Assembly: GCA_030390025.1 (NCBI GenBank)
Contig: CM059431.1
Span: 148,492,001 to 148,556,000, forward strand
Direction: 5' to 3'
Origin: Squalus acanthias
Lineage: Eukaryota
Length of the DNA: 64,000 nucleotides
In this document: piece after piece, positions 6,441 to 24,112 of the stretch
Layout of the letters: each line of letters opens with the position of its first letter
Numbering within the stretch: position 1 is the first letter of the stretch
Made by a program: the position numbers and the translations under genes
The notes under the pieces: model-generated
Database searches by the model: none
What the model was told of the DNA's origin: nothing
Seen by the model: only the letters and a program-made list of their open reading frames with translations

Positions 6441-6603
6441 TTCTGTGGGCTCACTCTCACGCTCACTTTTTCCTGTTTTAAATTAATTTTACAGGGTGTT
6501 CGAGGAGGAAGATTTGCACTAAGGAAGCTCAACGTAAACATCAGGTCAAGATCTGACAGAGTCAATCGATTCAACGGGTCCTGAATATCAGCAGCCTTTG
6601 AAT

Positions 6604-7107
6604 ATGGAAGCAAAAAGCACCGTTCTGTGAGTGGACGAGGATTCAGCCGACCCACTGACCTGTCGAGACACAAGCTCAGTCACACTGGGGAGAGGCCGTT
6701 CACCTGCTCCGTTTGTCGGAATGGATTCACTCAGTCATCCACCCTGCTGACACAGCAGCGAGTTCACACTGGGGAGAGGCCGTTCACCTGCTCCGTGTGT
6801 GGGAATGGAAAAACTGCGTCACCCACCCTCCTGACACACCAGCGGGTTCACACTGGTGAGCGGCCGTTCAGCTGCTCCGTGTGTGGGAAGGGATTCACTC
6901 AGTCACCCACACTGCTGACACACCAGCGGGTTCACACTGGAGAGGCCGTTCACCTTCTCTGTGTGCGGAAAGGGATTCACTCAGTCATCCACCTTGCTGA
7001 GACACTAGCGAGTTCACACTGGGGAGAGGCCGTTCACCTACTTTGAGTGTGGGAAGGGGTTAATTTCTACATCCAGCCAGCTAACACAACAGCGAGTACA
7101 CAACTGA
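6604..7107 (+). pseudogene. C2H2 (Kruppel-type) zinc-finger pseudogene, about 6 fingers
   Basis: Repeated HTGERPFxCxxCGxGFTQS..L..HQRVH; first finger truncated, 2-nt frameshift at ~6940, in-frame TAG at ~7006, Cys/His losses; acceptor tttacag at 6488-6494 and AATAAA at 7253. Confidence 0.88.
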
Positions 7108-7899
7108 CATCATAGGTTGGATTCTGCTGTATTTGCTGCTGTTACTTACATCCAAGACCGAACAATGTTCACTCTGACAGTTGGGGGTTGTTTCTGCTGA
7201 TGTTAGTAACTCCTGTAACTGGGCAGGAGTTTAATATGCTGTATAAATTTCAAATAAATCTGTTTGTTTTAAACACATCATTGTAGATTGTCGTCTTTCC
7301 CAACTGGGTGTTTAGCATCACCTGGCTGGAGCTCAGAAAGGAAAATCTGGGGGGAGGATCGCACGGCGGGAACAGGTCTTCAGTTTGGACACATTCATTA
7401 AAGGCCACACTGAGAGGGGAAAACGGCACTTTGGTCTTTCTCGTCTCTCTTCACTGACAGCAAAATCCCCATGCGGTTTAATCTTGAGGCGTGTAAGAAA
7501 TGTGTCCCAGCTGCTCTCTTCCATGGTTCAGAGCTCCTCAGCACGAAACAGAAGCCTCCATTACAGCTGTGTTTAGAATCAGGAAGAACAACGGTGAATG
7601 CTGGACACGTGCTGTCAAATCAGAGATTGATGTAAAATTGCAATCTGTTCCTGAGTTAAAGTGAAACGGCAGGTTTCAGTTTCCAGTCTAAAAATGACTG
7701 TGGTTATTATTCCATGAAGATTTAATGTGTTTGTGTGACAGTCCTGGGACTACCATTTTAAGGCAGGTGTTAACTCATTTAACATAAACTCATTTCAATT
7801 TGCTTAAAGTCTGCATTAACATAGGAGAGTGGAGAGTTCACAGGTGCCTGTTTACTGTTGGTACATTTAATGAACAGACATTTGATCTCCAGCTGAAGA

Positions 7900-8385
7900 A
7901 GGACCTGCAGCGGATTTCAGCCCAACTGGTCTGTGCCGGTGTTTATGCTCTATTCAAGCCTCCGCCCATCCCTCTTCTTCTAAACTAATTAGCACAATAA
8001 ACTATTCCTATCTCCCTTATGTGTTGATCGAGCTTCTCCTTAAAGGCATCTATGCTATTCGCCTCAACTACTCCCTGTGGTAGCGAATTCCACATTCTCA
8101 CCACTAGCAGAAAGTTTCTCCTGAATTCCCTATTGGATTTATTAATGACAATCTTATATTGATGGCCTCTAGATTTTGACTTCCACAAGTGAAAACATTT
8201 TCATCAAGACCACCCTTTATAACCTTTTTCATAATATTAAATACCTCTACCAGGTCACCCATCAGCCTTCTCTTTTTTCGGGTGAAAAGAGCCCAGCCTG
8301 TTCAGCCTTTCCTGATAAGTGTATCCTCTCAGAACCAGGATCATCCTTCCTAATGTTTCTACCACCTTCTCCAGTGCCTCTATAT
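7900..8385 (-). mobile_element. CR1 LINE 3' fragment
   Basis: SRGHQYKIV...RMWNSLPQGVVEANSIDAFK on minus strand. Confidence 0.8.
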
Positions 8386-8800
8386 CAAAGGGAACAGAGG
8401 AGGCTGAGGGGAGACGTAATTGAGGTGTATATAATTATGAGGGCAATTGAGCGAGTTGATAGGAAGGACCTATTTCCCTTAGCTGAAGTGTCAATACCAA
8501 GGGGGCATAGATTTAACCTAATTGGTAGGAAGTTTAGGGGGGAGTTAAGGAGAAATGTTTTCACCCAGATACTGGTGGGGGTCTGGACCTCTCTGTGTGA
8601 ATGGGTGGTAGAGGCAGAGAACCCCATTTCTTTTGAAAAGTACTTGGATATGCACTTGAAGGGCCATAAATTACAAGGCTACGGAGCAAGTGTTGGAAAG
8701 TGCAATTAAGGTGGATAGCTCTTTGTCGGCAGCACGGACACGATGGGCCGAATGGCCTCCTTCTGTGCTGTGAATTTCTATGCTTCTGTGATTCTATGAC
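8386..8800 (+). mobile_element. CR1 LINE 3' fragment
   Basis: EQRRLRGDVIEVY..RGHRFNL; tail ttctatgcttctgtgattctatga. Confidence 0.85.
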
Positions 8801-9055
8801 TGTTGATGGAGCCTTACCCTGAATCTAACCCGTGCTATGCCTGCCCTTGGTGTATTTTATGGGACAGTGCAGAGGGAGCAATAATATAGAGAGTCACCAG
8901 CAGAGGGGGGCAGGGAGAGGTATGCAGCTGAGTGAGCAATGATACAGAGAGACACCATCAGAGGGAAATAGATAAAGGTGAGACTGGGCACTGTGATACA
9001 GAGAGACCCCAGCAGAGGGAGATAGATAAAGGTGAGACTGAGTGCTGTGATACAT

Positions 9056-9543
9056 GATGCGGAGATAGCGGGTTAGCGTTCCCCAAGGCGGCCTTCGAGA
9101 CACACGACAACGCAAAATCATCGTGCAGAAACTGATAGCCAAGTTCCGCACCCATGAGGACGGCCTCAATAGGGATATTGGGTTTGTGTCACGCTACAGA
9201 ACGTGACTCGACATCGTTGTCTGTCTACCCAGTTTAAAAAAAAACACAACAAAAAAACAAAAAAAAGGTTAAAAGGTCAACTGCAGACGGCAGGATTTGA
9301 CACGTTGGAGCCCCTGTGACCCATCTCATTGTCTTGGCTGTGCTCTGTTGTGTCTTTGATGTAATGCCTCCCTGAAAGATTGTATCTCTGCAGACAAATT
9401 GCTTTCTGTGTTTATATACTGTGTAATACTGTAGATTCCCTCATTGTACCTTTACCTGACGAAGGGGCAACAGCTCCGAAAGCTTGTAATTTTAAATAAA
9501 TCTGTTGGACTATAACCAGGTGTTGTGCGACTTCTCATTTTTT
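9056..9543 (+). mobile_element. Penelope-like element 3' end (GIY-YIG C-terminus plus terminal region)
   Basis: RVSVPQGGLRDTRQRKIIVQKLIAKFRTHEDGLNRDIGF at ~9068-9186, followed by a hammerhead motif. Confidence 0.85.
9452..9489 (+). ncRNA. Minimal type I hammerhead ribozyme motif (intact core)
   Basis: ttac-CTGACGA-A-GGGGC(AACA)GCTCC-GAAA-GCTT-gtaa: stem I ttac/gtaa, 5-bp stem II, palindromic AGCT helix III. Confidence 0.85.
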
Positions 9544-9679
9544 GTGTGATACAGAGAGACACCAGCAGAGGGAGACAAATAAACGTGAAACTGATTACTG
9601 TGATACAATGAGACACCAGCAGATGGAGATAGAGAAAGGTGAGACTGAGCACTGTGAAACAGAAAGACACCAGCAGAGA

Positions 9680-10240
9680 CACCTGGAGTATTGTGCACAG
9701 TTTTGGTCTCCTTACCTCATGATGGATATACTTGCCTTAGAGGGAGTGCAACGAAGGTTCACCAGACTGGTTCCTGGGATGGGGGCATTGCCCTATGAGG
9801 AAAGATTGAGTAGACTAGGCCTCTATTTCCTAGAGTTTAGTGGAATGAGAGGTGATCTCATTGAAACATAGAACATTCTTATAGGGCTTGACAGGGCACT
9901 TGCTGAGAGGATGTTTCACCTGGCTGTGGAGGCCGAGAACCAAGGGTCACAGTCTCAGAATAAGGGGTCAGCCATTTAGGACTGAGATGAGACATTTCTT
10001 CACTCAGAGGGTGGTGAATCTTTGGAATTCTCTACCCCAGAGGGCTGTGGAGGCTCAGTCGTTGAGTATATTCAAGACAGAGAGCGATATATTTTTGAAT
10101 ATTAGGGGAATCAAGGGATATGGGGAAAGTGCAGGAAAGTGGAGATGATGTACGAGATCAGCCATGATCTTATGGAATGGTGGAGCAGGCTCGAAGAGCC
10201 AAATGACCGACTCCTGCTCCTATTTCTTATGTTGTTCTGA
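9680..10240 (+). mobile_element. CR1 LINE 3' fragment
   Basis: HLEYCAQFWSPYL..ALEGVQRRFTRL..RVVNLWNSLPQ and 3'UTR. Confidence 0.9.
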
Positions 10241-10739
10241 TCTTAAGTGCGGGTTCAGAGCAAATGGGTGGCTGTGCAAGTGTAAGAAATGCAGAGTGAA
10301 CGAAACGAGGGAAGCGCCAGAGGTTTCTATTGAGAGCTGCCAGTGAGAACACTGCTGCCCAGGGAGGAGACGCTTGGGCAAACCATGCTTGCAGTGACTC
10401 TCAGGCTGTTCCTCCATCGCAAACCCAGCTCCCAACAGCCGATTTTACAACTCCAACGAATTTCGCCAGATTTAAACGTTGGAGGGTTTCAAGGGAATTC
10501 TGATTTTTGCAGTATGGAGAAAGGATTGTTTTAAAAATGCCACATTCCCAAACAACGTTTAAAGAAATAAATACATGATTTTATTTAACCAGTCGGGCAG
10601 CAGGTTGATGAGAAACTCCATTGAAATGTAGCAGCGGTGCTGATTTCTGTGCAATATCAGCAAGCTGGCTCATTTCAGTCAGAGTTCCAAACGCCAACAG
10701 CTGCTCTGTGAAAAGTTGCCAGCGGTTTTTACCGGCCAA

Positions 10740-10860
10740 CTTGATGCCGCGGTTGATTGACAGCCGCACCAGCCAATCCAGTGCGAACCGGTCTTGCACG
10801 GTACCCAATGGGCGGTGAGCGGTGCACAGTCCGGTGATTGACAGGTCGGATCCGGAGCGA
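10740..10860. promoter_or_regulatory. Candidate promoter/enhancer: two TGATTGACAG (Pbx/Prep decamer), two CCAAT boxes, GC box
   Basis: TGATTGACAG at 10754 and 10835, CCAAT at 10773 and 10805, GGGCGG at 10810, CpG-retaining unique DNA. Confidence 0.5.
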
Positions 10861-12360
10861 GTGTTTGGGAAGCTTTTCATACAGGGATCAAACTTCAAAT
10901 GGAAATTTTGCTGATTTTGTGGGGATATTTTGCTGATGCGCGTTGTGCATATTTAAAAATATATATTTTTTTTCAGAGATGTCATGATGGATTCTTCCAT
11001 ATAGCCTCAATTTAGAAATAGAAAGTGGTGAGAATGTGAAACGTCCTCCCGCCTCGCTCTCTCTCTCACCCTCAGTGTCCCGCTCTCTCTCCCCGCATCG
11101 CTCTCTCACCCCCAGTCTCTTTCTCTATATAATACCCCCAGTCTCTCTCTCTCACCCCCAGTCGCTCTCTACCCAGTCTCCCTCTATCACCCCCAGTCTC
11201 TCTGTCCCCAGTCTCTCTCTCTCTCTCGCAACCAATCTCTCTCTTCACCAGTCTCTCTCTCTCTCTCCAGTCTTTCTCACTCTGCCCCAGTCCTACTCCC
11301 CGCCTGTCTACCACTCACTCCCCAGTCACTCTCTCCCCAGTCAATCTCTCTCCTGTCTCTCTCTCCCCCAGTCTCTCACTCTCTCCCCCGTCTCTCTCTC
11401 TTTCAAGTCACTCTCCCTCCACCAGCCTCTCTCGCTCTCTCCCAGTCATTCTCTCTTTCCAGTCTCTCTCTCGCCGCAATCTCTCTCTAACCCCCGTCTC
11501 CACTCTCTCCAGTCCCTCTCTATCTATCTTTCCCCCAGTCTCTCTCAGTCCCAGTCTCTCTCCCTCTCCCCCAATTTCTCTCTCTCCCCCGAATCTCACT
11601 CTCTCCAGTCTCTCTCTCTCCCCATTCTCTCTCTCGCCGAATCTCTCTCTCTCCCTAGTCTCTCACTCTCTCCTTGTACCTCCATCTCCCCCAGTCTCTC
11701 GCTCTCTCTCCCCAGTCTCTCTCTCTCCCACATTCTCTTTCTCTCTCCCCAGTATCTTTCTCTCCCCCAGTCTCTCTCACTCCCAGTCTCTTTCTCACAC
11801 CCAGTCTCTCTTTCACTCCGCCAGATTCTCTCTCTCTCCAGTCTCTCTCTCTCCCCGTCTCTCTCTCAACCAATCTCTCTCTCTCTTTCTCCCCAGTCTT
11901 TCTCTCGCACAATCTCCCCCTCTCCCCCAGTCTCTCTCTGTCCAGTCTCTCTCCCAACCCCGATCTCTCTCTCTCTCCAGTCTCTCTCTCCCCAGTCTCC
12001 CTGTCTCCCCAGTCTCACTCTCCCCAACCTCCCGCTCTCTGCAGTCGCTCTCTCTCTCTCTCTCTCACCCCCAGTCTCTCTCTCCCCAATCTCTCTCTCG
12101 CTAGTCTTTCTCACCCCAGTCTCTCTCTCTCCCCCTGACCCTCAATCACTCCAGTCTCTCTCCCTCCCCCAATCTCTCTCTCCCCAGTCCATCTCTCTCC
12201 CCCGTCACTCTCTCTCTCTAGTCTCTCTCTAGCCCCCGTCTTCACTATCTCCAGTCCCTCTCACTCCCCAGTCTCTCTCAATCTCCAGTCTCTCTCTCTC
12301 TCCCACAGTCTCTCTGACCCCCAGTATCTCTCTATCCCCCAGTCTGTACTATCGGCCCCA

Positions 12361-12413
<53 letters not shown>

Positions 12414-14317
12414 GTCTCTCTCACTCTCTCTCCAGTCTCTCTCTCTCCCCAGTCACTCTCTCGCCGAATCTCTCTCTCTCCCTAGTCTCTCACTCTCTCC
12501 CCAGTGCCTCCAATTCCCCCAGTCTCTCTCTCGCTTCCCTAGTCTCTCTCTCTGTCCCCCAGTCCCTCTCTCTACTGTCTTTCTATCTCGACAGTCTATC
12601 TGCCTCTCCCAGTCTCTCTCTAGCTTCAGTCTATCTCTCCCCGTCTCCCTGTTACCCCCAGTCTCACTCAGCCACAGTCTATCTCTCTCCAGTCTCTCTC
12701 TCTCCCCCAGTCACTCTCTCCCCCTATCTCTTTTTCCCTAGCCTCTTTCTCCCCCAGTCTCTCTCGCTCCCCAGTCTCTCTCTCTCTTCCCAGTCTCCCT
12801 GTCTCTACCATTCTCATTGTCCCCAGTCCATTTCTCCGACAGTCTCTCTCTATCCCGCAGTCTCTCTCTCTTCATCCTCTCTCTCCCAGTCAGTCTCTCG
12901 ACAGTAACTCTATCTCCAATTTCTCTCTCCGCCAGTCTCTCTCTCTGACCCCAGTCGCTATCTCTTTCCCCCAGTCTCTCTCTCTCCTCAGTCTCACTAT
13001 ATCTCCACCAGTCTCTCTCTCTCCTCCCGTCTCTCTCTCTCCCCATTTTCTCAATCCCCCGTCTCCTGTCTCTCCAGTCCCTCTCTCTGCCGCAGCCTCT
13101 CTCTCTCCCCAGTGTCTCTCTCCCCAGTCCCTCTCTACGTCCAGTCTCTCTCTCCCCAGTCTCTCTCGCTCCCCCTGTCTCACTCTCTCCCCCTGTCTCT
13201 CTCTCTCCAGTCACTCTCTCTCTCCCCCAGTAACACTCTCTCCCAGTCTCCCTCTCTCTCCCCATTCCCTCTCTCTCTCTCTCCCCCAGTCTCTATCTCA
13301 CCTGCAGAGTCTTTCTCTCCCCAGTCTCTCTGCCCCCCAGTCTCTCTATACCTCCAGTCTCTCACTCCACAGTCTTCTTGTCTCCCCTAGTCTCAATCTC
13401 CCCAGTTTTTCCTTCTCCCCAGTCTCTTTCTGTCACCCATTCTCTCTATCTTCAGTCTCTCTCACCTCCAGTCTCTCTCTCTCCCCAGTCTCTCTGTCGC
13501 CCCCTGTCTCACTTTCCCCAGTCTCTCACTCTACCCAATCTCTCTCTCGCCCACATTCTCTCCCTTCCCATTCTTACTCTCTCTCCCAGTCTCTCTCTCC
13601 CCAGTCACTCTTCAACACCAGTTTCTCTCTCCGCCAGTCTCTCTCTCTCTCTCCCCCGAGTCCCTATCTCTCTCTCCCCAGTCTCTCTTTCTCTCTCTCT
13701 GCACCCCAGTCTCTCTCTCTCTCCCCCAGACTCACTATCTCCCCTCCAGTCTCTCTCTCTCCTCCAGTCTTTCTCGCTCCCCCAGTCTCACGCTCTCCCC
13801 CGTCTCTCTCTCTCCAGTACCCCTCTCTCTGACCCTCTCCCACAGACACTCTCTCTCCACAGTCTCTCTCACTCCTCCAGAGTCTCTCACTATGCCCAGT
13901 ATCTCTCTTTCTCCCCCAGTCTCTCGCTATCTCCAGTCTCTATCTCCCCAGTCTCCCTGTCTCCCCTGCTTCACTCTCCCCAGTCTCTCTCTCTCCTCAG
14001 TCTTTTTCTCGCACCCAGTCTCTCTCTCTCCAGTCTCTCTTACATCCATTCTCTCTCTCTCCCTAGTCTTCCTGTGTCCCCCAGTTTCACGCTCCCCAGT
14101 CTCTTTCTCTCTCCAGTCTCTTTATCTCACCTAGTGTTTCTCTCCCTATGCAGTCTTTCTCACCTCCAGTCTCTCTCTCTCCCCAGTCTCTCTCAGTCTC
14201 CGGTCTCTCTCTATCCCCCACTCTTCCTCGCTCGCCGCCATTCGCTCTCTCTCTCTCCTCCAGCCTCTCTGTCTTTGCCGGACTCTCTCTCTCCCCCATT
14301 CTCTCTCTCTCTCAAAC

Positions 14318-14650
14318 AGTTATTTTCCCTGGCTGGAGTATCTAGAACTAGGGCACATAGTCTCAGGATAAGGGGTATGCCATTTTAGACTCAGATGAGG
14401 AGGAATTTCATAACTCAGAGTGTTGTGAATGTTTGGAATTCTCTGCCCCAGACGGCTGTGAAAGCTGAGTTTTGAGTATATTCAAGGCTGGGTTAGATAG
14501 ATTTTTGGACTCTCGGGGAATCAAGTGATTTGGAGATCGGGCGGGAATGTGGAATTGAGGTGTATGATCAGCCATGGTCTCATTGAATGGCGGAGCAGTC
14601 TCGAGGTGCCGTAAGGCCTTCTCCAGTTCTTATTTCTTTTTTTCTTATCT
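14318..14650 (+). mobile_element. CR1 3' fragment, copy 1 of 4 with shared 5' truncation
   Basis: cagttattttccctggc..tctagaactagg..aggataagggg through 3'UTR. Confidence 0.85.
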
Positions 14651-15451
14651 TCTTATTATCTCTCATTCTCCCGAGTCTCTCTCTCTCTATCTCTCAGTCT
14701 CTCTCTCTCCCTCAGTCTCTCTCTATCTCTAGTCTCTCTCTGCCACCGTCGCTCTCTATCCAGTCTCTCTCTCCCCCAGTCTCTCTCTCGGCCCCAGTCT
14801 TTCCAACTCTCTCCCAGTTTCTCTCCAACCCCCTGTCTCTCTTTCTCAACATTCTCTCTCTCTCTCCAATCTTCCTTTCTCTCAAGTCTCCGCTCTCACC
14901 CAATCTCTCTCTCTCCCCAGTCTCTCTCTCTCTTCCCCAGTCTGTCAGTCTCTCCAGTCTCTCTCTCCCCAGGCTATCTCACTCACTCCAGTCTCTCTCT
15001 CTTCCCAGTCTCTCAAACCCCCAGCACTCTCTCACCTCAGCCCCTCTCTCTCCCCAATTATTTCTCTCTCTCCAGTCTCCCTCTCTGCGACAGTCTCTCT
15101 CACTCACTCCCCATTCTCTCTCTCCACAGTCTCTCTCTCTCTCCAGTCTCTCTCTCTCCCACAATCTCTCTCTCTCCCTCTCCCCATTCTCTCTCTCCCC
15201 AGTATAACTCTCACCAGTCTCTAACTCACTCCAGTTCTCTCTCCCCCAGTCTCTCTCTCTCTCTCCCGTTCCCTCTCTATCTCCACAGTCTCTCTCTAGC
15301 TCTGTCCCAGTCGCCCCCTCACACCTAGTCTCACTCTCTCTGCTCCAGTCTCCCTCTCTCACCCCCATTCGCTCTCTCACTCTCTCTCTCTCTCCCCTTG
15401 CCTCTCTCTCTGTTTCAGACTCTCTCTCTCGCATAGTCTCGCTATCTCTAC

Positions 15452-15780
15452 CGGTCGTTTCCACTGGCTGGAGTGTCTCGAACTAGGGCACATAATATCA
15501 GGATAAGGTGTCGGCCATTTAAGACTCAGATGTGGAACAATTTCATAAGAGAGAGTGTTGTGAAAATTTGGAATTCTCTGCCCCAGAAGGCTGTGAATGC
15601 TGAGTTTTGAGTTTGAAGGATTTTTGGTCTCATGGGGAATCCTGGGATTTGCAGATCGGGCGGGAATGTGGAGTTGATATGTATGATCAGCCATGTTCTC
15701 ATTGAATGGCGGTGCAGTCTCGAGGGGCCTTTTGTCCCACTCCTGTTCTTATTTCTTATTTTCCCATGTTTTTATGTTCT
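15452..15780 (+). mobile_element. CR1 3' fragment, copy 2 of 4
   Basis: Same start point and extent as copy 1. Confidence 0.85.
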
Positions 15781-18700
15781 CTCAATTTCTCAAATCTCTC
15801 TCTCTCTCCGCAGTCTCTCGCTCTCTCCAGCCTCTCTCTCCCAGAGTCTCTCTCTCTCTCTCCAGTCTCTCTCTCTCTCCCCCAGTTTCTCTCTCTCTCC
15901 AGTCTCTTTCTCTCCCACAGTCTCCTTCTCTCACCATTCTCTCTCGCTCCCCAGTATCTCTCTCCCTGCAGTCTCTCTCTCCGACAGTCTGACTTTCTAT
16001 CCCAATTCTCTCTCGCTCTCCAGTCTCTCTCTACTCTATGTCTATTTCTCTCTCCAGTCTCTCTCTCCCCTAGTCGCTCTCACTCCCCCTCCAGTTCCTT
16101 TCTCTCTCTCTCAATTGTCTCAGTCTCTCTCCCCAGCCTCACTCTCTCTGCTCCAGTTGCGCTCTCTCCAGAACTTCTTCATCTCCAGTCTCTCTCTCTC
16201 CCCCCAATCTCTCTCTCTCCCCAGTCTCTCTCTTCCCCATCTCTCTCTCTCTCTTCAGTTTCTCTCTCTCCCAGTCACTGTCTCTCTGCAGTTTCTCTCT
16301 CCCACAGTATCTCAATCTCTCCCCATTGCTCCTCTCGACAATTCCATCTCTCTCATCAGTCTCTCTCTCTCTGCTTTCTATCTCACCCCTAGTACCTCTT
16401 TCTCGCCAAGGCTCTCTCTCCCGCAGACTCTCTAAATCTCCAGTCGTTCACTCCCGCAGTCTCATTCTCCTCCAGTCTCCCGCTGTCACCACACTCTCTC
16501 TCACCCAGTCTCTCTCTCTCCACTCTCTCTCCGATAGTCTCTCTCTCTCTCCCCATACGCCCTCTCTACTCAGTCTCTCTCTCCAATCTCTCTCTCTCTC
16601 CATTCTCTCTCTCCGCTAGTCTCTCTCTCTCCCCAGTCCCTCTCTCCCCAGTCTCTCTCTCTACAGTCTCTCTCTCTCCCCAGTCTCTCACTCTGCCAGT
16701 CTTTCTCTCTATGCAGACTCTCTCTCCCACAGTCTCTCACACTTGCTCCATTGTCTATCTCGCCATTCCATCTCTCTTACCAGTCTCTCGCTCTCTGTTT
16801 TCGATCTCTCCCTAGCACCTCTCTCTCCCGCAGTCTCACTCTCCTCCAGCCTCTCTCTCTCCCCAGTCTCTCTATCTCCCCAGTCACTCCCTTACCCAGT
16901 CTCTCTCTATTTCCTGTCTCTCGCTCTCCCCAGTCTCTCTCTCCCCCGTCTTTCTCTCTCCAATCACTCTCTCCAGTCTCTCTACAGCTAGTCTCTCCCT
17001 CTCTCCCCAGTCCCTCTCTCTCTCTCTCTCTCAAGTCTCCCAGTCTCTCACGCCCAGTCTCTCTCTCTCTCCCCAGAATCTCTCTCCCCATTCTCTCTCT
17101 CTACAGTCTCTCAACCTCCCCAGTCTCTCTCTCTCTCTGCCAGTCTTACTCTCTCTGCAGACTCTCTGTCACACAGTCTCTCACACTCTCCACATTGTCT
17201 CTCTCCCCCATTCCATCTCTGTCACCAGTCTCTCTCTCTCTTCAGTTTCTCTCTCTCCCAGTCACTGTCTCTCTGCAGTTTCTCTCTCCCACAGTATCTC
17301 AATCTCTCCCCATTGCTCCTCTCGACAATTCCATCTCTCTCATCAGTCTCTCTCTCTCTGCTTTCTATCTCACCCCTAGTACCTCTTTCTCGCCAAGGCT
17401 CTCTCTCCCGCAGACTCTCTAAATCTCCAGTCGTTCACTCCCGCAGTCTCATTCTCCTCCAGTCTCCCTCTGTCACCACACTCTCTCTCTCCCAGTCTCT
17501 CTCTCTCCACTCTCTCTCCGATAGTCTCTCTCTCTCTCCCCATACGCCCTCTCTACTCAGTCTCTCTCTCTCCAATCTCTCTCTCTCTCCATTCTCTCTC
17601 TCCGCTAGTCTCTCTCTCTCCCCAGTCCCTCTCTCCCCAGTCTCTCTCTCTACAGTCTCTCTCTCTCCCCAGTCTCTCACTCTGCCAGTCTTTCTCTCTA
17701 TGCAGACTCTCTCTCCCACAGTCTCTCACACTTGCTCCATTGTCTCTCTCGCTATTCCATCTCTCTTACCAGTCTCTCGCTCTCTGTTTTCGATCTCTCC
17801 CTAGCACCTCTCTCTCCCGCAGTCTCACTCTCCTCCAGCCTCTCTCTCTCCCCAGTCTCTCTATCTCCCCAGTCACTCCCTCGCCCAGTCTCTCTCTATT
17901 TCCTGTCTCTCGCTCTCCCCAGTCTCTCTCTCCCCCGTCTTTCTCTCTCCAATCACTCTCTCCAGTCTCTCTACAGCTAGTCTCTCCCTCTCTCCCCAGT
18001 CCCTCTCTCTCTCTCTCTCCCAAGTCTCCCAGTCTCTCACGCCCAGTCTCTCTCTCTCTCCCCAGTTTCTCTCTCCCCATTCTCTCTCTACAGTCTCTCA
18101 ACCTCCCCAGTCTCTCTCTCTCTCTCTCTCTGCCAGTCTTACTCTCTCTGCAGACTCTCTGTCACACAGTCTCTCACACTCTCCACATTGTCTCTCTCCC
18201 CCATTCCATCTCTGTCACCAGTCTCTCTCTCTCTGCTTTCGATCTCTCCCAAGTAGCTCTCTCTACCACAGTCTCACTCTCCTCCAGCCTCTCTCTCTCC
18301 CCAGTCTATCTCTCTCCCCAGTCACTCCCTCACCCAGTCTCTCTCGATCTCCAGTCTCTCTCTCTCTCCCAGTCTCTCTCTCCCCCGTCTCTCTATCCAC
18401 AGTCTCTCTCTCCGCACATTGACTCACCCTCTCCAGTCTCTCCCTCCCGCAGCCTCTCTCGCTCTCTCCCAATATTGCACTCCATATTATCTCTCTCTCT
18501 CCCATCTCTCTCTCGCTCAGTCTCTCTCTCTCTCTCCAGTCTCTCTCTCTCCCCAGTCTCTCTCTTCCCCCCAGTTTCTCTCTCCAGTCACTCTCTCTCC
18601 GATAGTCTATCTCTCTCTCCCCATTCTCTCTCTCTCCCCAACCTCATCTCTCTCCAATCTTTTTCTCTCCCCCAGTCTCCCTCTCTCACCATTCTTTCTC

Positions 18701-23984: not shown

Positions 23985-24112
23985 AATGTGGAGATGCCGG
24001 TGTTGGACTGGGGTGGGCAAATGTGAGAAGTCGCTCAGCACCTGGTTATATTCCAACAGCGTTATTTGAATCCACAAGCTTTCGGAGCGCTGCTCCTTCG
24101 TCAGGTGAAGAC
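23985..24112 (-). mobile_element. Solo Penelope-like terminal fragment (~125 bp) inside the minisatellite
   Basis: Reverse complement aligns with 9452-9540 (..aaataa..ctgttgga.tataaccaggtg.tg.gcgacttctca). Confidence 0.85.
24072..24108 (-). ncRNA. Minimal type I hammerhead ribozyme motif (intact core)
   Basis: Minus strand: tcac-CTGACGA-A-GGAGC(AGC)GCTCC-GAAA-GCTT-gtgg. Confidence 0.85.

Follow-up and report, generated by a model that had tools for sequence, protein, structure and literature searches.

The 3.7-Gb genome of the shark Squalus acanthias carries, within a stretch of 64,000 nt (the window), a sequence at positions 9452-9489 with the layout of a minimal hammerhead ribozyme. The locus raises the question of whether this motif works in its own right or is a passenger of the mobile element in which it lies, and what the ribozyme would do in the family to which that element belongs.

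The hammerhead motif and its folding

The motif and the insertion around it are made up of the following features.

9046-9054, forward strand: left copy of the 9-bp target-site duplication, TGTGATACA, in a host tandem repeat and overlapping the inverted tail by 2 nt
9053-9066, reverse strand: minimal second arm of the insertion, 14 nt left over in inverted orientation from the optional family tail; it is the reverse complement of the sequence that ends the tail after the pseudo-LTR (pLTR) in other copies
9067-9206, forward strand: 5'-truncated ORF end: the final 45 codons with the stop, closing the putative GIY-YIG region, with the C-terminus found in the 892-aa ORFs of loci L127-L129
9207-9542, forward strand: 3' non-coding part, or pLTR, ending without a tail; 93-97% identical to 29 other loci
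9413-9418, forward strand: TATA-like box TATATA of putative function, 30 nt before the candidate start; spacing kept within the subfamily
9440-9445, forward strand: initiator-like CTCATT, its A at 9443 being the candidate transcription start, 13 nt before the CUGA
9452-9489, forward strand: minimal type I hammerhead, recognised by sequence, descriptor, folding and variant alignment; predicted cut 9485/9486
Hammerhead parts, forward strand, 5' portion: TTAC 9452-9455; CTGACGA 9456-9462; unpaired A 9463; GGGGC 9464-9468
Hammerhead parts, forward strand, 3' portion: AACA 9469-9472; GCTCC 9473-9477; GAAA 9478-9481; GCTT 9482-9485; GTAA 9486-9489
9545-9553, forward strand: right copy of the target-site duplication, the same 9-mer as at 9046-9054

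The window motif has the core CUGANGA ... GAAA ... NUH. Stem I (TTAC/GTAA) has four pairs and stem II (GGGGC/GCTCC) five, one of them G-U. Helix II is preceded by the unpaired A 9463 and has the G10.1-C11.1 pair, which is G-C in all 35 aligned variants described below. The palindrome AGCT occupies 9481-9484, loop 3 is absent and the triplet CUU predicts a cut after U17 (9485), a base that satisfies the NUH rule (PMC3884650). The original prediction had named these bases, stems, palindrome, triplet and cut position, in exact agreement with the sequence. It had also proposed two computational checks, which came out differently. A descriptor search of the window returned 9452-9489 (forward strand) and 24071-24109 (reverse strand) as its only two matches, and none in 100 dinucleotide shuffles, while an Rfam scan of positions 7000-12000 at E<=10, where Hammerhead_1 was expected, gave four matches with no hammerhead among them.

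Folded alone, the 38-nt stretch forms stems I and II (-9.0 kcal/mol), with pair probabilities of 0.41-0.92 for stem I and 0.98 for stem II. In a context of 143 or 336 nt stem II is kept (0.78-0.96) and stem I is not (~0.01). A modelled dimer reaches -15.3 kcal/mol vs -8.1 per monomer, a stability not above that of two monomers, and the AGCU duplex contributes -2.5. This lack of energetic advantage agrees with the weak cleavage of minimal hammerheads from Penelope-like elements (PLEs) in vitro, even as dimers (PMC4209133), and with an anole element whose hammerhead needs the element's protein for cleavage (PMC11167929).

The window insertion and its surroundings

Reading frame 9042 ends in ...KLIAKFRTHEDGLNRDIGFVSRYRT*, with its stop at 9204-9206, 246 nt upstream of the motif. 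The GIY-YIG C-terminus had been placed about 270 nt upstream on the same strand; the strand stands and the distance was slightly too long. The window copy is a 5'-truncated, protein-less insertion (9067-9542) of a Neptune-type PLE. The proposal of a minimal type I hammerhead in a PLE is thus borne out, the motif being located in the pLTR and its core and stems being kept across genomic copies; a lack of such conservation, which had been named as an outcome that would speak against the proposal, was looked for and is not what the copies display. Positions 9068-9542 are 93-97% identical to 29 other fetched loci and 99.6% identical to a segmental duplicate. This inverted duplicate (L142, G000:C7:150270000-150279999) lies on the same contig and matches window positions 7330-17312 with 98.4% identity over 10,001 nt. 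It contains the insertion, which is older than the duplication.

The window copy passively carries the hammerhead and is one among ~20,000 family end-pieces, not a special one. It is likely inert or nearly so, because it cannot make protein and has no partner in cis: there is no second same-strand hammerhead for it within the 64-kb window, the sole other one being on the opposite strand. The latter belongs to an older, short copy of a sister subfamily (24024-24110, reverse strand) with an intact hammerhead (stem I TTCAC/GTGGA) and a tail, inside a simple repeat. A C2H2 zinc-finger frame (6585-7100, forward strand; zf-H2C2_2, E 8e-23), with stops and frameshifts in its vicinity, is found 2.3 kb upstream of the insertion and is probably a decayed gene end. 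None of 21 sequencing runs, all available as contigs in which molecule ends are not visible, contains half of the words of the stretch. Runs guessed to be RNA contain related family sequence, with no position at which molecule starts or ends accumulate, a result that in contigs has no bearing on cleavage or on the window copy.

The parent family

A 40-mer downstream of the ribozyme core has 19,908 exact matches in the genome, and the 31-nt core itself (N7 = C or T) has 863, while its control has none. Upstream, related loci continue for varying distances into an open frame for reverse transcriptase and endonuclease that ends in ...LNRDIGFMSRYRT, like the window frame. In three of the 15 long loci (L127, L128 and L129) an intact ORF of 892 aa is flanked by two hammerheads of the same strand, spaced by 3,031-3,044 nt (~3.03 kb), one in each pLTR. 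The ATG of intact copies lies ~90 nt after the cut site, so the ribozyme falls wholly in the 5' UTR.

The L128 ORF matches Pfam RVT_1 (E 6.7e-8, 32.9 bits vs a cut-off of 29.6) in a part that the window copy does not have. Many copies encode the linker CHGNLCKTC, which corresponds to the Neptune-type CX2-5CxxC motif before the endonuclease (motif as given in PMC8557442). A Pfam search of the family protein and of the window gave no match to GIY-YIG; the motif VYLI...YIGE was recognised by eye at the C-terminus, and the Atlas clusters nearest to this region (0.96) have PF01541 (GIY-YIG) in 31-34% of their members. A search of solved structures gave no match.

The pLTR, the one-end tail and the inverted truncated copy are all seen in the family. 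Among the first 100 of the 19,908 matches, outward inverted pairs have exactly one tail in 24 of 24 cases and same-strand pairs number two. The anatomy of the window copy, with its short inverted tail arm and target-site duplication, is the usual form of insertion (PMC8557442). At L162, L166 and L201 the arms of the inverted pair come from distinct subfamily variants, implying two RNA templates per insertion. The independent insertions L204 and L421 have 22-24 nt of filler between their arms, derived from ~90-110 nt into the ORF and joined at or near the cut site, which points to a jump of the template to one fixed place in the RNA; a comparable jump at L265 ends ~28 nt into the ORF. Two long open frames lie beside a family copy at another locus (L036:337-1545 and L036:4952-6001). 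We take them to resemble a Harbinger-type transposase and the gag of an LTR retrotransposon.

Variation of the hammerhead

Fetched loci yielded 100 distinct hammerhead variants, of which the 35 seen at least twice were aligned. In these rows, which share descent and were collected by a parser that demanded a near-intact core, C3, G5, A6, G8, A9, G12, A13, A14, A15.1 and U16.1 are invariant (35/35) and U4 is C in one. C, A and G occur at N7 and U and C at N17, and loop II has 3 to 9 nt. The AGCT palindrome (15.2-16.2) is unchanged in all 35. Pairing is preserved in 95.9% of 315 cells (100% in stem II, 90.7% in stem I), a level that none of 500 shuffles reaches, and the outermost pair of stem I is broken in 13 of the 35 variants. 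Compensatory changes are found at two of nine pairs, UA to CG in stem I (9/35) and CG to UA in stem II (one variant); they amount to about two independent events since related rows share descent. The 60 nt past the ribozyme, which also served as search anchor, are as conserved as the core, and therefore conservation alone is not specific to the hammerhead. As read from sequence, the pattern of variation is that expected from hammerhead selection in active lineages and says nothing on selection at the window copy.

One subfamily (L039, L046, L051 and others) combines CCGACGA, with U4 changed to C, and a compensated U-A pair that closes stem II. A 2.53-kb host tandem unit present in dozens of copies (L243, L244; contigs C354, C526, C977 and C1021) has a short inverted family pair inside, and the hammerhead in this unit is without G8 (CTGACAA).

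Where copies begin

The front edge was mapped in the first 100 of the 863 places with an identical core, all of them fetched and the arms of a pair counted apart. Only the upstream edge is informative in this sample because a full core is needed for a place to enter it. Copies that start within 15 nt before C3 are 41 of 100 (2.6 per nt), while the next 230 nt upstream account for 37 (0.16 per nt) and longer copies for 22. The edge is sharp at 13-15 nt, on the A of CTCATT (9443), 30 nt past TATATA (9413). We assume that the elements at 9413 and 9443 match the TATA and initiator consensus. To judge from the sequence, the front edge is likely the 5' end of the RNA, with transcription starting at this TATA- and initiator-like pair. 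A junction map with ORF-bearing references placed 3 of 100 starts at the cut site and 18 of 100 at 32-58 nt upstream.

Starts at the cut site itself were sought genome-wide with a pattern that has three flank mismatches directly before G1.1. It gave 77 matches, 62 of them on contigs C1-C27, and the 20 joints fetched were all true, 13 to an inverted arm and seven to other DNA. Shifted 3 nt upstream, the pattern had 29 matches (27 on C1-C27; 18 of 20 fetched were true). Placed 3 nt downstream it gave 173, mostly 1-nt deletions and the 2.53-kb host array, and 27 of 46 C1-C27 rows were left after removal by hand. At L245 and L246 one cut-site insertion was amplified repeatedly with a host minisatellite array, which inflates raw counts.

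Window patterns of equal capture over 12 positions gave 141, 91 and 144 matches; 291 of these 376 rows were tallied by hand, and a script check on the first 30 of each agreed in all but two rows, which the hand tally had taken for variants. Chance-corrected rates are 61-69 at +1 (the cut site), 58-72 at +2, 15-38 at +3 to +6 and 2-40 at -1 to -4, with 43-44 at the AGCT palindrome. The peak at +2 probably results from AT-rich microhomology. A sister group that starts with GTGA has 645 matches, of which the first 100 were tallied. Position +1 has a rate of ~20, +2 one of 6-8 and the control G at +3 one of no more than 7-8, while -1 to -4 range from 0 to 7. The comparison in this group is 11 vs 5 rows (p 0.03-0.05), and the palindrome has 17 rows per 100. 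Throughout these counts the rows are not independent, and the null takes no account of microhomology. In two subfamily groups, copies begin exactly at the cut site ~3 times as often as at the bases next to it, an excess of ~1% of copies. The +1 excess recurs in the sister group, and a sequence-driven peak of like size is found five bases away.

Insertion of a second element at the cut site was considered as a source of these joints and rejected: among 30 G1.1-joint flanks, shared non-family sequence is limited to the duplicated locus L207/L208 and one locus counted twice. L215 and L216 are partial tandems in which the first pLTR stops after ...GACTAT, followed by an A run and then by a second copy that begins exactly at G1.1.

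A possible role of the ribozyme

In the family-wide reading, which we hold to be probable, the motif is present in every full pLTR, likely makes up the first ~45 bases of the RNA of active elements and is predicted to cut only occasionally, with a second copy supplying helix III; in the window copy it is passive. Transcription would start at 9443 from the TATA/initiator pair. Two AGCU palindromes could then pair to a 4-bp helix III, contributed either by both pLTRs of one 3-kb transcript or by two RNAs held by protein. A cut after U17 would release a 43-nt capped piece and leave an RNA with a 5'-OH. Reverse transcription would begin past the ribozyme, from either the tail or the end of the pLTR, and for this reason copies that reach past the ribozyme, the window copy included, would stem from RNA uncut at that pLTR. 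Most templates would thus be uncut. That the excess at G1.1 records cleavage in vivo, in the germ line, is a tentative addition to which we give somewhat less than even chances: ~1% of copies would be run-off products of RNA cut at U17/G1.1, beside a larger class from the start 13 nt before the CUGA.

It is unlikely that the motif persists as a structural or sequence signal (in promoter function, protein binding or reverse transcription) and hardly ever cuts, the G1.1 excess then coming from microhomology and AT-rich joints. Ribozyme mutants of the anole element leave insertion in vitro unchanged and no RNA-seq reads end at its cut site (PMC11167929), at several G1.1 joints the target or the partner arm offers AC/GTA microhomology, and the sequence-driven AGCT peak five bases upstream is similar in size (43 vs 58-72; 17 of 100 rows in the sister group). 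Such a signal would not account for the fact that the positions that vary are exactly those free to vary in catalysis, nor for the G1.1 excess being found again in the sister group, whose start is less AT-rich and whose control G two bases off has about one third of the rate. Somewhat less probable still is that the cluster of starts upstream of the CUGA reflects a splice acceptor, or a stop of reverse transcriptase after the ribozyme structure, and not a transcription start. A D. virilis intron does end at the 5' end of helix I (PMC4209133), and one subfamily has a pyrimidine run with CAG 9 nt before the CUGA. The subfamily of the window copy has no AG at the edge (CTCATTG), and a conserved AG does lie 21 nt before C3, yet only four of 100 copies start there (18-20 nt); the edge instead coincides with an initiator-like A that has a TATA-like box 30 nt before it.

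The idea that the host uses the window copy as an active ribozyme, cutting read-through RNA of the zinc-finger frame or RNA from its own promoter, is very improbable. In its favour are the intact core, the retained putative promoter, the C2H2 zinc-finger frame (6585-7046) located upstream in the same orientation, and the segmental duplicate of 98.4% identity on the same contig. An intact core needs no selection on the window copy, as it is identical to 863 other cores; the window's single further hammerhead is encoded on the complementary strand, and no run, all being contigs, has half of the words of the stretch. The passive reading of the window copy and the occasional cutting in the family are retained, and the family-level junction signal matters more than the window copy, which itself matters little. 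A young family of ~20,000 copies with intact 892-aa elements makes base-by-base comparison of junction statistics, 5' ends and in vitro assays possible. If true, the cut-site reading would tell how large a share of templates is cut, roughly a tenth or less, and would be direct evidence of cutting in vivo by hammerheads of endonuclease-bearing PLEs, which is missing from the available text of the papers compared here.

Relation to known systems

A literature search, covering openly available main texts, found no report of the shark family or of cut-site junction counts. The words 'shark', 'Callorhinchus' and 'skate' have no match in the main text of PMC4209133, which leaves the shark family unnamed and whose supplements may name it; the available text of that paper has no in vivo evidence. 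The function of the hammerhead in endonuclease-bearing PLEs is described as 'still unclear' (PMC8557442).

The shark motif belongs to an already known kind, the minimal hammerheads (min-HHR) in the pLTRs of metazoan PLEs described by Cervera and de la Pena (2014, PMC4209133) and reported there also for Neptune elements of fish. It shares with them the core, the unpaired base between 9 and 10.1, the G10.1-C11.1 pair, the palindromic 15.2-16.2 without loop 3, the 4-bp helix I, the presence in both pLTRs and the thousands of solo copies. Its helix II of 5 bp differs from the 7-8 bp of the Schistosoma families (PMC4209133). The promoter of D. virilis Penelope is TATA-less and internal (PMC2377424), unlike the one proposed here for the shark family. 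Animal non-LTR retrozymes (bioRxiv 10.64898/2026.07.22.740005) likewise have a type I hammerhead, whose proposed origin is the pLTRs of PLEs, but they are non-coding tandem arrays; the window copy is single and carries an ORF end, and its single same-strand hammerhead together with this ORF end rules out a retrozyme array.

PAc, a Poseidon element of Anolis carolinensis (Frangieh et al. 2024, PMC11167929), also has a hammerhead in its pLTR. Its tail is bounded by two starts of reverse transcription and both strands are extended, which is consistent with the single tail in 24 of 24 shark pairs. The PAc ORF starts inside stem II and the cut falls 26 nt into it, whereas the shark ATG lies ~90 nt after the cut; the Neptune-type cysteine motif in the shark linker is a further difference from PAc. 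The shark family also resembles the endonuclease-bearing PLEs of the Neptune clade (Craig et al. 2021, PMC8557442), in 5' truncation, partial tandems, the inverted arm, the 30-40 bp one-end tail and the CX2-5CxxC linker, which in the shark precedes a putative C-terminal GIY-YIG. No difference from the Neptune elements was found in the available text of that paper, and by these features, used here in place of a tree, the shark family probably belongs to the Neptune clade.
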